Source of the DNA: Escherichia coli
GTDB taxonomy: Bacteria > Pseudomonadota > Gammaproteobacteria > Enterobacterales > Enterobacteriaceae
Assembly (NCBI RefSeq): GCF_003991155.1
Contig: NZ_CP031293.1
Direction: 5' to 3' (one strand)
Length of the DNA stretch: 64,000 bases
Part shown: piece by piece, positions 11,539 through 17,741 of the stretch
How positions within the stretch are numbered: the stretch's first letter is position 1
Layout: every line of letters begins with the position of its first letter
Program-made: the position numbers and the translations under genes
Notes under the pieces: generated by a model
Told to the model about the DNA's origin: nothing
The model's database searches: none
The model's input: the letters and a program-made list of their open reading frames with translations, nothing else

Positions 11539-12189
11539 ATGAAAACTCAATTGATGGGAGAGCGCATTCGCGCTCGGAGAAAAGAACTCAAGATCAGGCA
11601 GGCCGCACTTGGAAAGATGGTCGGCGTGTCTAATGTTGCCATATCTCAGTGGGAACGCTCTGAGACAGAGCCAAATGGAGAGAATCTTCTCGCCCTGGCT
11701 AATGCGTTGAAGTGTTCCCCTGACTATCTGATGAAAGGAGAGGAAAGTCTTTCAAACATTGCCTATCACAGTAGGCATGATCCAAGAGGGTCATACCCTC
11801 TGATTAGCTGGGTGAGCGCAGGATGCTGGATGGAAGCTGTAGAACCATATCATAAGCGTGCAATAGATAACTGGTACGATACAACCGTAGACTGTTCAGA
11901 AGATTCGTTTTGGTTGGATGTGAAGGGAGACTCAATGACGGCTCCGGCCGGTCTCAGTATCCCTGAAGGAATGATAATACTCGTCGATCCTGAAGTAGAG
12001 CCGCGTAACGGGAAACTGGTAGTTGCAAAGCTCGAAGGAGAAAACGAGGCAACTTTCAAGAAGTTAGTTATTGATGCAGGCAGGAAGTTTCTAAAACCAC
12101 TTAACCCACAATATCCGATGATCGAGATCAACGGAAACTGCAAAATCATCGGCGTAGTTGTCGATGCAAAACTAGCAAACCTTCCATAA
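11539..12189 (+). CDS. cI: CI repressor (HTH + S24 LexA-like peptidase domain)
   Basis: N-terminal HTH (VGVSNVAISQWERSE), C-terminal S24 motifs (GDSM, K in VVAKLEGE). Confidence 0.9.
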   Translation: MKTQLMGERIRARRKELKIRQAALGKMVGVSNVAISQWERSETEPNGENLLALANALKCSPDYLMKGEESLSNIAYHSRHDPRGSYPLISWVSAGCWMEAVEPYHKRAIDNWYDTTVDCSEDSFWLDVKGDSMTAPAGLSIPEGMIILVDPEVEPRNGKLVVAKLEGENEATFKKLVIDAGRKFLKPLNPQYPMIEINGNCKIIGVVVDAKLANLP

Positions 12190-12190
12190 G

Positions 12191-12212
12191 GGGGCATTCG
12201 CCCCTTTTTTTT
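12191..12212 (+). terminator. Intrinsic terminator after cI
   Basis: GGGGC-ATTC-GCCCC followed by TTTTTTTTATTT. Confidence 0.7.
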
Positions 12213-12280
12213 ATTTCCTTTAAAAATCAAAGCCAAACTTAAGTTACGAAAGAAAATTTAAGTTTTCTTCAAAAATACTC

Positions 12281-12309
12281 TTGACCATTAATTAAAGAGA
12301 TCTTAAATT
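12281..12309 (+). promoter_or_regulatory. PL promoter with flanking OL operator half-sites
   Basis: TTGACC-17 nt-TAAATT; flanking palindromes CTTAAATTTAAG and TTAAGT repeats. Confidence 0.5.
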
Positions 12310-12355
12310 TAAGCCATCAGCAGGACGCTGGAAGCCAAACGGAACAGATTGGCAG

Positions 12356-12396
12356 GCTCTTTAACATTGATGGGATTGTCCCGCCGAAATGCGGGA
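12356..12396 (+). promoter_or_regulatory. nutL (boxA GCTCTTTAAC + boxB hairpin)
   Basis: boxA 12356-12365; boxB TCCCGCCGAAATGCGGGA 12379-12396, identical to nutR boxB. Confidence 0.55.
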
Positions 12397-12795
12397 ACCA
12401 AAGAGTAGTTGGCTTTGGGATTGGATGAATGAGCAGGCTGATGCTCGACCAATGTATAAACAGCGCTCATGGCAAGCAGTAACCAATCTGCGCCTCAAGA
12501 CAGCGTCACTGGTAGTGCGGGCGCTCTAACCAGTAAGCCGGAGTTCAGCACCGGCCATCCAATCGCCAAAGTCAATTCCATAGGCGTTATGCAGCCGCCA
12601 CCTATTCAAGAAAGCTGCACAAGAGGTAGGAGGATTTATGTGAATACTTACATTCAATTGAGAGATTAATTAAATAGAACTGATCGAGCAGAGTCCATAA
12701 AGGCTCATAAATGCTCTTCCATCCCCGTCTAATTGGCGGGGAAGGAAACCACTTTGTAATAAAAAAATTCCAAAGTTGTTTCATCGGAGGTCAAC

Positions 12796-13095
12796 ATGAC
12801 AGTAGTCATTACATATCTAGCTGACGATAACGCCAGAAATCGCCGCAGAGCACGCAGGCAGGCTCAACGTGAACAGGCAATGCAAGAACAGCGACTGGCG
12901 CGAAAGATTGCGCTAAAGCTCTCTGGTTGCGTCAGAGCAGACAAAGCAGCATCACTCGGAAGCCTTCGCTGCAAGAAGGCAGAAGAAGTCGAGAGTAAAC
13001 AGAACCGTATTTACTACCGCAAGCCACGCAGTGAAATGGGTGTGACTTGTGTTGGTCGCCAGAAAATGAAATTAGGCAGCAAACCACTTATTTGA
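12796..13095 (+). CDS. N: Antitermination protein N
   Basis: Arg-rich motif NARNRRRARRQAQ; C-terminus RIYYRKPRSEMGVTCVGRQKMKLGSKPLI resembles lambda N. Confidence 0.8.
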   Translation: MTVVITYLADDNARNRRRARRQAQREQAMQEQRLARKIALKLSGCVRADKAASLGSLRCKKAEEVESKQNRIYYRKPRSEMGVTCVGRQKMKLGSKPLI

Positions 13096-13106
13096 GAGGA
13101 ATTAAT

Positions 13107-13730
13107 ATGTCATCAATCCGCTTAACTACGAGAATGAAAGAGAAAATCGCTCGTAACGCTTTAATTAAGTCTGGGGTTTTCACTGAACTTGAAGAAGTAA
13201 CAAAGTTAAAGAACCAGCTTGCACTTGACGCCAGAGTTATTGCGTTTGGCGGTAAAAAGAAAACTGAGGAAGTGGATCAGTTATCATCCAGGTTAGTAGC
13301 TATAAGTGAAGAACTTGAAAAGATGGGATGTTCATTTTACTCATACGATGTTCGTTCTACTTCAATTTATCTGACTGTATCTGGCAGAAGGGTTGGATGG
13401 CATTCATATGGGAAAGACGGCAACGGCGAAGATATATTGCTCCCTACTCCAACCAAAGATAAATGCATGTTTGATGCAGAACACGAAATAACAAAAAGGT
13501 TTGATGAAATCTGCGCATTGCAACAAAAACTTGAAGCCAAGAAAAAGGATATCGAATCAAATGTATGGGCTGCTTTGAACTCAGTCACAACAGTTAAGCG
13601 ACTTATTGAAGTTTGGCCTGAAAGCAAAGAATTGCTACCAAAAGAAGCAGACAAAGCAAGTACAGCACTTCCTGCTTTACGGGTAGAAGATTTGAATAAG
13701 ATGATTGGACTTCCTTCCGAGTCCGCATAG
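13107..13730 (+). CDS. Hypothetical phage protein (207 aa) in the ral/sieB-equivalent position
   Basis: ORF with GAGGA RBS directly after N; no family recognised. Confidence 0.5.
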   Translation: MSSIRLTTRMKEKIARNALIKSGVFTELEEVTKLKNQLALDARVIAFGGKKKTEEVDQLSSRLVAISEELEKMGCSFYSYDVRSTSIYLTVSGRRVGWHSYGKDGNGEDILLPTPTKDKCMFDAEHEITKRFDEICALQQKLEAKKKDIESNVWAALNSVTTVKRLIEVWPESKELLPKEADKASTALPALRVEDLNKMIGLPSESA

Positions 13731-13864
13731 TCGGCCTTTATTTTTGGCACTAACAACAGAATAAACACTGCACTGTGTATTCATTCCAACGAGTGAATAC
13801 ACGGAGCAATGTCGCTCTTAACTAAACAGGAGCCGACTTGTTCTGATTATTGGAAATCTTCTTT

Positions 13865-13891
13865 GCCCTCCAGTGTGAGGGCGATTTTTTT
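13865..13891 (+). terminator. tL-like intrinsic terminator
   Basis: GCCCTC-CAGTGT-GAGGGC followed by GATTTTTTT, 12 nt upstream of next start codon. Confidence 0.5.
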
Positions 13892-13903
13892 GATGGAGGA
13901 TAT

Positions 13904-14872
13904 ATGAGTGAAGTAACAGATTTAGTTGTTATTGAAAAAGCAAATGCAATGACTGTATTTCAGTCTGCCGACCAGATTGAAGAAATCCTTCAAAGGGTTG
14001 AACGTGAAGTTATGTCCTTTGTGCCTGATATCACAACGGCAAAGGGCAGAAAGGAGATCGCTTCTCTGGCGTATAAAGTTGCGCAGACGAAAACATATCT
14101 CGATGGTCTTGGCAAAGACCTTGTTGCTGAACTGAAGGAAATTCCAAAGCTAATTGATGCCAACCGCAAGACAGTGCGCGATCGCCTTGATGAGCTGAAA
14201 GCCAAGGCACGCCAGCCTCTTACTGATTATGAGGAAGAACAGGCGCGGATTAAAGCCGAAGAAGAAGCTAAGGCAGCAGCTGAAGCTCTCGCAAAGCAAA
14301 TTGAGTCTGACCATGAAATAGCTATTTTGATGGATCGCGAATTTGACCGCCAAAGAGAAGAGGCAAGACTCAAAGCGGAGCAGGAAAAGCGAGAGCATGA
14401 AGAACGCTTAAAAAGAGAAGCTGAAGAGAAAGCCAGAGCAGAAGCCGAAGCAAAGGCAAAAGCCGAAATTGAAGCAGCAGCAAGGCGAGAAGCAGAAGCT
14501 AAGGCCGCAGCGGAACGTGCAGAGCGTGAACGCATTGAAGCCGAGCAACGAGCACAGCGCGAAGCAAAAGAGGCAGCAGAACGAGCTGAAAGAGAAAAGC
14601 AGGCGGCAATTGAAGCAGAACGCCGAAAAGCACAGGAGGAGGCTGAACGAATCCGGCGCGAGGCTGAAGCAAAAGAGCAAGCCAGAATAGCAGAAGAAAA
14701 AAGAATCAAGGACGAAGAAGAGCGTAGAGCAAAGGATAAAGCTCACCGGAAAGAAGTAAATAACAAAATACTTGCTGACCTTATCAAGGTTGGCGCATCA
14801 GAAGATGTTGCTAAAAATATCATAACAGCCATCGTAAAAGGCGAAGTATTCGCAACAAAAATAACCTACTAA
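13904..14872 (+). CDS. Hypothetical protein with long charged E/R/K/A-rich single alpha-helix segment
   Basis: N-terminal about 110 aa domain, about 170 aa low-complexity AEAK/ERAE repeats, short C-terminal domain; GGAGG RBS. Confidence 0.5.
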   Translation: MSEVTDLVVIEKANAMTVFQSADQIEEILQRVEREVMSFVPDITTAKGRKEIASLAYKVAQTKTYLDGLGKDLVAELKEIPKLIDANRKTVRDRLDELKAKARQPLTDYEEEQARIKAEEEAKAAAEALAKQIESDHEIAILMDREFDRQREEARLKAEQEKREHEERLKREAEEKARAEAEAKAKAEIEAAARREAEAKAAAERAERERIEAEQRAQREAKEAAERAEREKQAAIEAERRKAQEEAERIRREAEAKEQARIAEEKRIKDEEERRAKDKAHRKEVNNKILADLIKVGASEDVAKNIITAIVKGEVFATKITY

Positions 14873-14895
14873 TAAACCAACATAAGGAACCACCC

Positions 14896-15027
14896 ATGAT
14901 TTACGCAATCGCGGGAGGCGCTCGCATGGGTGCCTTCCAACTAAATGAATCTTTACTTGAACGAATCACCCGTAAATTACGTGACGGATGGAAAAGAGTT
15001 GAGGTCTTATTATGCGCAATGAAATAG
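14896..15027 (+). CDS. cIII: CIII (FtsH inhibitor)
   Basis: 43 aa MIYAIAGG...ESLLERITRKLRDGWKR, lambda CIII core motif; below ORF-track cutoff. Confidence 0.65.
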   Translation: MIYAIAGGARMGAFQLNESLLERITRKLRDGWKRVEVLLCAMK

Positions 15028-15164
15028 CCATCAATCACCAGATGCTTCGTGCTGCACAGAACAAAGCAGTAATAGCCAGATTTATTGGTGATTCAAAAAT
15101 GTGGCTTGAAGCAAATAAAGCAATGAAATCAGCTATCAACCTTCCGTGGTATCGCAGGAAATGA
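15012..15164 (+). CDS. kil: Kil-like protein
   Basis: 50 aa MRNEIAINHQMLRAAQNKAVIARFIGDSKMWLEANKAMK; FIGD motif resembles lambda Kil as recalled; overlaps cIII 3' end. Confidence 0.5.
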   Translation: MRNEIAINHQMLRAAQNKAVIARFIGDSKMWLEANKAMKSAINLPWYRRK

Positions 15165-15418
15165 GTTTTACAGATAACTGGTCAGACGAAGAATTCATTC
15201 GTCAGATGAAAGAATTAGTCGGTAACGAAGGAGATATGCATGTCACTTGCAACCACAGTGAAGGAGAGCAAGTTACAGAGACGCATGTACACGCAGCAGG
15301 CGTTAATGTATCGCCAGAAGGGAGATCGTGAAGGTGTTCGCGTATTTTTAAATGCGGCAAAGACTGAAGTATTAAATCAGCGTTATTTCCTTGGGCCGTG
15401 TCCATTCTGAGGTGAATT

Positions 15419-16126
15419 ATGGATTTGAACAAATTCGATGAACCATTCAGCCCTGAAGATATCGAATGGCGAATACAGCAAAGCGGTAAAACACGCGATG
15501 GCAAGGTGTGGGCTATGGTGCTGGCTTATGTCACGAACCGGGCAATCATGAAACGCCTGGACGATGTTTGCGGCAAAGCAGGATGGCGCAATGAATACCG
15601 CGATATTCCCAACAACGGCGGAGTTGAATGCGGCATATCAATCAAGATTGATTCCGAATGGGTAACCAAATGGGATGCTGCTGAAAACACGCAGGTAGAA
15701 GCCGTCAAAGGTGGTCGTTCCGGTGCAATGAAGCGTGCTGCCGTTCAATGGGGAATCGGTCGGTATCTGTATAACCTTGAGGAAGGTTTCGCACAAACAT
15801 CTCTCGATAAAAAGCAGGGATGGCACAGGGCAAAACTGAAGGATGGAACAGGATTTTACTGGCTCCCTCCATCGCTGCCGGGATGGGCAATCCCAGCATC
15901 AGATAACAAACCATCACCAGAAAATACCAACCAGAAATCTCCATCGGTTGACTGCGAACAAATCCTGAAAGACTTCAGCGATTATGCATCAACAGAAACT
16001 GACAAGAAAAAACTCATCGAGCGTTATCAGCGTGACTGGCAATTAATGGCTGGCAACGAGGAGGCGCAGGCTAAATGCGTTCAGGTAATGAACATCAGAG
16101 TTAACGAACTAAAACAGGCGGCATAA
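15419..16126 (+). CDS. Putative single-strand annealing protein (Rad52/Sak-like)
   Basis: 235 aa immediately upstream of ssb in the recombination module; family assignment from memory. Confidence 0.45.
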   Translation: MDLNKFDEPFSPEDIEWRIQQSGKTRDGKVWAMVLAYVTNRAIMKRLDDVCGKAGWRNEYRDIPNNGGVECGISIKIDSEWVTKWDAAENTQVEAVKGGRSGAMKRAAVQWGIGRYLYNLEEGFAQTSLDKKQGWHRAKLKDGTGFYWLPPSLPGWAIPASDNKPSPENTNQKSPSVDCEQILKDFSDYASTETDKKKLIERYQRDWQLMAGNEEAQAKCVQVMNIRVNELKQAA

Positions 16127-16633
16127 ATGGCAAGCAGAGGCGTAAATAAGGTGATTATCCTTGGTCGGGTAGGACAAGACCCGGAAGTTCGATACTCACC
16201 ATCAGGAACAGCGTTCGCTAACCTGACAATAGCCACGTCAGAACAATGGCGAGATAAAAATACTGGCGAGCAAAAGGAATTAACTGAATGGCATCGTGTT
16301 GCTGTATCCGGGAAACTGGCTGAGGTCGTGGGGCAGTATGTGAAAAAAGGTGATCAGATTTATTTCGAGGGAATGCTGAGAACCAGAAAGTGGAAAGACC
16401 AGTCAGGGCAAGACCGTTACACAACCGAGGTTCATGTCGGAATTAATGGCGTGATGCAAATGCTTGGCGGCATTGGCGACAGCAAACAACAAGCAGCCAG
16501 CAGGCAATCACAGAAGCCACAGCAGCAATCATCACCAGCACAACACAACGAACCTCCGATGGATTTTGACGACGATATACCCTTTGCACCAGTAACTCTC
16601 CCCTTCCCTCGTCACGCTATTCACGCAATTTAA
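16127..16633 (+). CDS. ssb: Single-stranded DNA-binding protein
   Basis: OB-fold N-terminus [34 protein letters not shown]..., Gly/Gln-rich linker, DFDDDIPF acidic tip followed by extra 15 aa. Confidence 0.9.
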
Positions 16634-16646
16634 TCAGGAGAAAATC

Positions 16647-16940
16647 ATGCCAGCGCCTCTGTATGGTGCGGATGACCCGCGCCGCTGTTCCGGCAATTCC
16701 GTATCGGAGGTGCTGGATAAATTCAGGAAAAACTACGACCTGATAATGTCGCTACCGCAGGAAACGAAAGAGGAAAAGGAATTTCGCCATTGTATATGGC
16801 TTGCAGAGAAAGAAGAACGCGAGCGAATTTACCAGACATCAATCCGACCATTCCGCAAAGCCACATATACCCACTTCCCTGAAATTGACCCGCGCCTGCG
16901 TAATTACCGCTCACGCTATGGCGCTATCAGTAATGACTGA
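16647..16940 (+). CDS. Hypothetical phage protein (97 aa)
   Basis: ORF with AGGAG RBS. Confidence 0.45.
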
Positions 16941-17114: not shown

Positions 17115-17741
17115 GTGAGCAAGATTGATTATCAAAAGCTTCGTGAAATCGCTGAAAAAACAAAAATTGCTGGTGAAACACCCGTAATGCCTTTCGATCA
17201 GCGAATTAATGCGCTTAACGATTTTATGAAGCACTTTTCGCCAGATATCGCGCTGGCATTGTTGGATGAACGGGAAAGAAACCTGCAATACATCAAACGC
17301 CGCGACCAGGAGAACGAGGAAATTGCGCTAACGGTAGGGAAGCTGAGAGTTGAGCTGGAAGGCAAAGACAGCAAAATAGCCAATCTTACCGCCGAACGCG
17401 ATGCTCTTCGTGAAGGTGAGATGGGCGACGCTAGGCATAGCAACACACGGGCCGCAGCTGATATCTACTTCCAACTGGTCGAGGAGTGCGAAATTCCTGC
17501 TGGCGGATCTCTGGTCGAGTACGTTGACGATATGCGCGAGAAGCTGGAAGCCGCAGAGAAGCGCATTGCTGAGCTGGAGTTGCTGGAGGTTGTGCTTCCG
17601 CAATGCTATAGCATGTTGCATCGCGTCGATTTTGACGAGCCTTACCACACTGAAATGGTTTACAGGCAGCATCAGGTTCTTGAGGCACTGCACAACGCTG
17701 GAATAAACGTCACCGAAGCAGGTAAAGGAGAGGCATCATGA
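17115..17741 (+). CDS. Hypothetical phage protein, possibly Ea22-like
   Basis: 208 aa coiled-coil-rich protein in the lambda ea22 map position. Confidence 0.4.

Follow-up and report, generated by a model that had tools for sequence, protein, structure and literature searches.

Two unrelated gene families between N and cIII of an Escherichia coli lambdoid prophage: an Nmad5-family protein and a candidate recombination accessory factor with a predicted single-helix spacer

We analyzed the interval between the N-like gene and cIII of a lambdoid prophage contained in a 64,000-nucleotide (nt) stretch of Escherichia coli DNA (RefSeq assembly GCF_003991155.1, contig NZ_CP031293.1; hereafter the window). 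Positions 13107-14872 hold two + strand open reading frames (ORFs), ORF1 (13107-13730, 207 amino acids (aa)) and ORF2 (13904-14872, 322 aa). The reading that we favor, with about even confidence, is that these are two unrelated, separately regulated genes, one a member of the Nmad5 family (ORF1) and the other an accessory gene of recombination or anti-RecBCD function (ORF2). An initial annotation, made from the sequence alone, had placed the pair between N and cIII with sizes, coordinates and flanking genes that are all correct by our gene calls, and had assigned neither protein to a recognizable family. That second statement proved wrong for both. Profile searches and structure prediction, which the same annotation had proposed for the two proteins, identified ORF1 as Nmad5 and ORF2 as a member of phrog_1376 with a long helix in the AlphaFold2 (AF2) model. 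Both genes are additions to known but poorly characterized families, and the interval is less novel than had been thought.

ORF2 matched phrog_1376 at E = 2.7e-110, as did Agt of phage phi80 (E = 1.6e-103) and all sampled ORF2 homologs. The family includes Sf6 gp33, D3 orf53 and phi80 agt/Mog. Sf6 gp33 is the same gene as ORF2, with DNA about 97% identical including the boundary sequence, the terminator tL2A and the downstream cIII-kil-erf-ssb-abc2 array; D3 orf53 shares the ORF2 architecture, with erf and exo coming directly after it. Neither differs materially from ORF2. Agt/Mog (YP_007947961.1) is 51% identical to ORF2 end to end, 322 versus 322 aa, and shares its layout of N-terminal domain (N-domain), charged helix and C-terminal domain (C-domain). 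A profile of the ORF2 N-domain reached 5,646 clusters at 50% identity, 5,062 of them at E ≤ 1e-10. Pfam searches found no consistent family, whether run with the whole protein, with its N-domain, with the C-domain alignment or with 107 relatives; NCBIfam returned nothing for ORF1 or ORF2, and PDB sequence-profile searches with the N-domain and C-domain alignments gave nothing significant. A possible link to the DUF1351 proteins of Gram-positive phages was supported by no scan and was dropped. Three further sequences from E. coli and related genomes (P0019, P0037 and P0045) are chimeras in which the first 70-95 ORF2 residues are fused to other sequence; the partner in P0019 is the Abc2 C terminus (PF11043), which indicates a deletion across cIII-kil-erf-ssb in some prophages.

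The functional assignment draws on gene neighborhood. Because ORF2 and its relatives are conserved beside recombination modules, we regard ORF2 as most likely a recombination or anti-RecBCD accessory factor and not an exclusion gene. In the window, the module comprises an Erf-type annealing protein (15419-16126), SSB (16127-16633) and the anti-RecBCD protein Abc2 (16647-16940), all on the + strand and assigned from the annotation of homologous Sf6 genes; Abc2 is 96% identical to Sf6 abc2. For a broader view, an IMG/VR scan retained just the 80 closest loci; the counts out of 76 given here cover IMG/VR loci with enough downstream DNA, and wider diversity was taken from annotated phage records. 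A recognizable recombination gene (annealing protein, exonuclease, SSB, GamL or Abc2) followed the ORF2 relative on the same strand in 71 of 76 loci, at a median distance of 551 nt and a maximum of 1,582 nt, and none lay upstream. When one of the five exceptions was checked, an Erf-like gene was found downstream.

The same neighborhood recurred in all 14 annotated phages inspected, and phages with this synteny infect Escherichia, Klebsiella, Pseudomonas, Vibrio, Acinetobacter, Serratia and Yersinia. In phi80, gamL starts 8 nt after agt, and RecT and Exo come next. In D3 and JBD44, erf and exo begin 8 nt downstream of the ORF2 relative, and in Edwardsiella phage GF-2 and a Yersinia phage the relative is followed by cIII and then by erf and ssb. 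Serratia phage Eta carries recE and bet beside it, Acinetobacter phage TCUAN1 and a Plectonema phage carry bet, and three Vibrio phages have recombination genes alongside in permuted order. A single ORF2 sequence type co-occurs with Bet, Erf, Sak4 or RecT, with Abc2 present in 33 of 35 such loci; ORF2 therefore cannot be specific to one annealing protein.

A more specific functional hint comes from phi80. Its database record describes agt as ‘anti-toxin for Gam; Mog (modifier of Gam)’ and gamL as ‘toxic without Mog’. The GenBank note is the one source for this activity against a RecBCD inhibitor, and for ORF2 it is hypothetical. Members of the 55-60% identity type have GamL 10-11 nt downstream in 21 loci (of 78 related); the identity range given for the GamL-adjacent loci as a whole is 46-60%. 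Agt/Mog and ORF2 both head the recombination genes of an early-left operon. They differ in what follows: gamL lies 8 nt behind agt and defines its stated role, whereas ORF2 has no gamL and is followed by cIII and kil. The RecBCD modulator is GamL in phi80 and, in this prophage, Abc2, 1.8 kb downstream of ORF2. We found no secondary descriptions of agt/Mog in the literature, and a 2025 survey of lambdoid recombination modules does not discuss the ORF2 gene.

Composition, AF2 and alignments agree on the architecture that had been proposed for ORF2 from sequence, a folded N-terminal part, a charged segment of about 170 aa and a short C-domain. The helical N-domain (aa 1-115; 13904-14248) matched phrog_17211 at E = 6e-75 and carries the family signature VPDxSTxKGRxxIASxAxKV...GKxL...RxPL, composed of invariant and near-invariant residues. 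The spacer (aa 116-285; 14249-14758) is predicted to be a single alpha-helix from its composition, charge statistics and AF2 model. Of its 170 residues, E (47), A (43), R (27) and K (19) make up 80%, and hydrophobic content in the core is 3-7%. Opposite-charge pairs at i+3/i+4 number 88, compared with 55.4 ± 5.7 in shuffled sequences (z = 5.7), and pairs of like charge are under-represented (z = -4.6). Heptad counts in the spacer are flat, with no hydrophobic register. AF2, run on a 107-sequence alignment (mean predicted local distance difference test (pLDDT) score 86.5), returned one helix spanning residues 46-295; a dip in confidence at about residues 150-180 suggests a possible hinge in the model. 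The reading as a stiff single alpha-helix stands because of the charge pairing, the lack of a heptad register and the single AF2 helix, and a stable monomeric helix is what these data predict. Of the earlier description as ‘E/R/K/A-rich repeats’, the composition holds and the repeats do not: Tandem Repeats Finder (TRF) detected no true tandem repeats in ORF2, just weak 6- and 15-nt periodicity.

The predicted length of the ORF2 spacer is about 25 nm. The 107 family members vary in spacer sequence but keep to a conserved spacer length (median 185 aa, interquartile range 170-200); at the median, the spacer would extend about 28 nm if helical. ER/K-type single alpha-helix spacers occur in myosin VI/X and caldesmon. 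ORF2 resembles such helices, as well as TolA domain II, in being rich in E/R/K/A, in its dense i/i+4 opposite-charge pairs, in having no hydrophobic seam and in being predicted as one long helix, and it differs from classical ER/K helices, which contain less alanine than the ORF2 spacer (25%). The C-domain (aa 286-322 plus stop codon; 14759-14872), delimited by alignments and modeled at pLDDT 92-97, ends the protein with the motif HRxxINxxAxxxLxxxGxxExxAKxxVxxIAxGxIPxVxIxY and is conserved, at about 45 aa, throughout the family. It gave weak PDB profile matches to RuvA and UBA chains (E = 0.02-1.5) and an hhalign probability of 24%, and Pfam RuvA_C matched 2 of 46 members at E ~ 0.01. The matches are intriguing given the recombination context and are not significant; the apparent likeness to RuvA domain III/UBA folds is faint, a lead and not a result.

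In the mechanism that we propose, ORF2 would be a soluble protein in which a charged single alpha-helix, some 25-28 nm long, connects a helical N-domain to a C-domain of 45 residues. Its two end domains would bind two partners, which the rigid helix would keep at a fixed distance. On the phage side, the likely partner would be the RecBCD modulator, which is Abc2 here and GamL in phi80; on the host side, it would be a component of DNA repair or replication. The outcome would be RecBCD modulation that is tuned or detoxified during recombination-dependent growth. A more far-reaching version, to which we assign a low probability, holds that phrog_1376 is an overlooked, widespread core part of proteobacterial phage recombination modules and acts as a molecular ruler, with the N-domain holding a RecBCD modulator or a DNA end, the C-domain, with its likeness to RuvA domain III, docking on a host repair or branch-migration motor and the ~28-nm helix setting the distance between them. 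If true, this would define a new mechanistic class of recombination regulator hidden under ‘TolA’ annotations.

That the two genes are separately regulated is suggested by the 173-nt spacer between them (13731-13903). It is near-identical to its counterpart in Sf6 and mEp213, and the Sf6 record annotates that counterpart as boundary sequence bsq4 and terminator tL2A. Read from the sequence, the + strand contains a conserved inverted repeat with a 9-bp stem (GTGTATTCA...TGAATACAC) at 13775-13803. An intrinsic terminator with an 8-bp stem (5 GC pairs) and a T7 run follows at 13863-13894 (+ strand); identified by terminator scan and by alignment to tL2A, it is the homolog of this Sf6 element, for which the Sf6 record notes homology to lambda. 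Because a conserved terminator separates them, ORF1 and ORF2 would fall into different expression classes, and ORF2, located past a tL2A-type terminator, would be expressed with the delayed-early recombination genes. The spacer also carries CGCTCTTAA at about 13801-13809, where Sf6 and mEp213 have CGCTCGTAA; we take CGCTCTTAA to resemble the boxA antitermination element of lambda nut sites.

ORF1 aligns with Pfam Nmad5 (PF18757) at E = 4.1e-72 from protein residue 4 to 203 and over model positions 1-206 of 206, and with phrog_1965 at E = 1e-83. The Prokaryotic Genome Annotation Pipeline (PGAP)/RefSeq name of the protein is ‘Nmad5 family putative nucleotide modification protein’, and PF18757 was present in all 71 ORF1 homologs, at identities down to 33%. 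With the AF2 model (pLDDT = 85), Foldseek retrieved 30 matches in AFDB50 at E ≤ 1e-3, essentially all annotated as Nmad5 and with TM-scores ≤0.91; a PDB sequence-profile search with the ORF1 alignment found nothing significant.

The distribution of ORF1 is patchy. Just 6 of the 78 related viral loci contain it, with differing distances to ORF2. Of 5,426 E. coli genomes, 2,292 have at least part of the interval, but only 41 have both genes in the present arrangement. In sister phages, the slot holds ral, DUF2528 or other small genes. ORF1 is, on this distribution, interchangeable cargo of a variable N-to-tL2 slot. Its start lies 11 nt past the N stop codon, and the terminator scan found none in between; with N immediately before it and the first recognizable terminator only after it, ORF1 is expected to be transcribed from pL as soon as infection or induction begins and is probably an immediate-early gene. 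The proposal that both genes are cargo of one accessory slot thus fits ORF1 and does not fit ORF2, which lies beyond the tL2A-type terminator and keeps its place by the recombination genes.

Several points weigh against our assignment. The phi80 GenBank note is the sole functional statement on any member of the ORF2 family. The window contains no gamL homolog, both GamL and Abc2 are missing next to many family members (those in D3 and JBD44 among them), and in this prophage cIII and kil intervene between ORF2 and erf. The case from synteny is one of guilt by association, and shared timing by itself could account for the pattern. Neither end domain of ORF2 is identified by a fold or sequence match, and the N-domain, acidic overall with an isoelectric point of 5.1, does not favor DNA binding. 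Rho-dependent terminators, which are invisible to the terminator scan, could change the inferred timing, and for ORF1 there is no indication of mechanism.

A different view of the interval is that one or both genes provide a new superinfection-exclusion or anti-defense function like that of lambda ral or sieB; the initial annotation had seen here the best candidate in the window for such a function. We consider this unlikely. Lambda Ral, SieB and Ea10 share the N-to-cIII position in the pL operon with ORF1 and ORF2, with no sequence relationship detected. The points in favor concern ORF1, which fills the variable ral/DUF2528 slot and is placed for immediate-early expression with no terminator after N. 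Its family also has a genetic connection to defense: in a Dhillonvirus, a single K-to-E substitution in Nmad5 leads to escape from the Tmn defense system and the gene is toxic when cloned, whereas nmad5 deletion leaves Tmn sensitivity unchanged (PMC11846954). For the proteins themselves, PADLOC reported just a compositional LmuB match of ORF2 (E = 0.032), the Ral and SieB families were unmatched and the PHROG matches are to other families. A promoter scan detected no promoter-like site in front of ORF1 or ORF2 that could serve lysogenic expression, and ORF2 is not variable as expected of such cargo but conserved and syntenic with recombination genes. Among the 190 phage records encoding the ORF2 N-domain, no lambda record appeared in the summary tallies or among the 45 matches listed. 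The candidacy of ORF2 is unsupported by these results, and we grade an anti-defense role of ORF1 as merely possible; an early host-takeover or counter-defense role is plausible for it, with no support from these data.

ORF2 might alternatively be a general DNA-associated scaffold of replication or recombination centers that is not tied specifically to RecBCD inhibitors; a KfrA-like filament or tether would be one example. The family is found alongside all types of annealing protein, and in some cases GamL and Abc2 are both lacking. The AF2 model of ORF2 has a long helical body, and conserved basic residues (K47, R49, K58, K63, K71, R88, R92 and R103) line the N-domain helix; the faint RuvA domain III likeness of the C-domain would also suit such a role. 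What makes this explanation quite unlikely is that ORF2 has no recognizable DNA-binding fold, a net acidic N-domain and no heptad register for coiled-coil oligomerization, and that the sole annotated homolog is described through Gam and not through DNA.

The name of the ORF1 family suggests a further possibility, participation in the chemical modification of phage DNA bases. Beyond Pfam membership itself, this finds some backing in M6/SN1-type Pseudomonas phages, where Nmad5 is encoded inside a thymidine hypermodification cassette, adjoining aGPT-Pplase and a hydroxymethylase (PMC9476957), and in an N4-like Klebsiella phage (KpCHEMY26), where it lies between thymidylate synthase and a nuclease. 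Elsewhere, Nmad5 is found in the nin region (SPN3UB) or adjoining capsid genes (Dhillonvirus). The conserved C-terminal half of the Dhillonvirus and M6 proteins aligns to ORF1 at 32-37% identity, the Dhillonvirus protein being longer than ORF1 and encoded next to capsid genes instead of behind N. In contrast to the M6/SN1 homologs in their base-hypermodification cassette, ORF1 is solitary behind N, and the pL operon, which is the part of the prophage examined for base-modification enzymes, has none among the neighbors of ORF1 (N, ORF2, cIII, kil, erf, ssb and abc2). In the literature found, a nucleotide-modification role of Nmad5 is put forward as a computational prediction only, and we hold such a role of ORF1 to be very doubtful. 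For the Dhillonvirus comparison, ORF1 (13107-13730) was aligned through positions 2033-2797 of Escherichia phage JLBYU60 (L095); the Tmn-escape substitution K216E would align with ORF1 R165 if the numbering matches PhiSMA8 (unconfirmed), and R165 sits in a near-invariant T-x-K-R-L-I-E-x-W-P-E motif.

Lastly, database labels of ORF2 relatives (‘TolA’, ‘cell envelope biogenesis protein TolA’ and ‘colicin import membrane protein’) would make ORF2 a TolA-like cell-envelope protein, an identity that we rejected as virtually untenable and ascribe to composition alone, since ORF2 has no transmembrane segment to serve as a membrane anchor (maximum Kyte-Doolittle 19-residue mean 1.03), no Pfam or NCBIfam TolA model (including TolA domain III) matched ORF2 or its 107 relatives, and what ORF2 has in common with TolA goes no further than the E/K/A-rich makeup of domain II.

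The surrounding early-left operon is encoded on the + strand in the order cI (11539-12189), pL-like promoter (12281-12309), N (12796-13095), ORF1, the 173-nt spacer, ORF2, cIII (14896-15027), kil (15012-15164), erf, ssb and abc2, so that cIII and kil sit between ORF2 and the recombination genes. The N-like antiterminator (99 aa, arginine-rich N terminus) is the first gene of the pL operon, and near-identical DNA in mEp213, CUS-3 and others is annotated as antitermination protein N; cIII and kil were assigned from their translations and from the annotation of near-identical DNA. ORF1 runs from an ATG at 13107 to a stop at 13730 and ORF2 from an ATG at 13904 to a stop at 14872, preceded by the Shine-Dalgarno sequences GAGAGG and GGAGG, respectively. 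Homolog N termini (MSSIRL and MSEVTDL) support these starts. The longer TTG starts of the ORF list were rejected, as homologs start at the ATG residues and, in the case of ORF2, because the extended ORF would cross the terminator. Judged by their dozens of homologs, with identities down to ~33-50%, and by an ORF2 N-domain profile that reaches thousands of clusters, both are clearly genuine genes.

Further features of the region were noted. The pL-to-N leader (12310-12795) is unusually long, at about 490 nt, and contains a boxB-like hairpin (CCGCCGAAATGCGG, ~12381-12394) and a minus-strand ORF of 60 aa (12602-12784). Two minus-strand ORFs within ORF2 (14227-14709, 160 aa; 14408-14746, 112 aa) are artifacts and not genes, because their Ser/Ala/Phe/Cys/Leu-rich products mirror the GAA/GCA-rich coding strand. 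An Rfam search of 12000-15500 gave nothing credible. Farther along the early-left operon, an Ead/Ea22-like protein of 208 aa is encoded at 17115-17741, and in E. coli VTB97022v (H27) an IS903B-family transposase is inserted in the region homologous to 13000-15000.

For the Nmad5 family, which was recently tied genetically to the Tmn defense system, ORF1 adds a stand-alone, probably immediate-early copy. The larger gene is not free-floating accessory cargo and stays with recombination modules whatever the annealing protein. No Pfam model covers its family, which numbers more than 5,000 clusters at 50% identity and carries the ‘TolA’ label in thousands of genomes. Learning what ORF2 does would supply a missing piece in accounts of the Red-, Erf- and RecT-type recombination systems, which also serve as recombineering tools, and would add a bacterial case of a length-conserved single-helix spacer. 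The most useful outcome would be to recognize that what is called ‘TolA’ in lambdoid and other proteobacterial phages is a gene of the recombination module.

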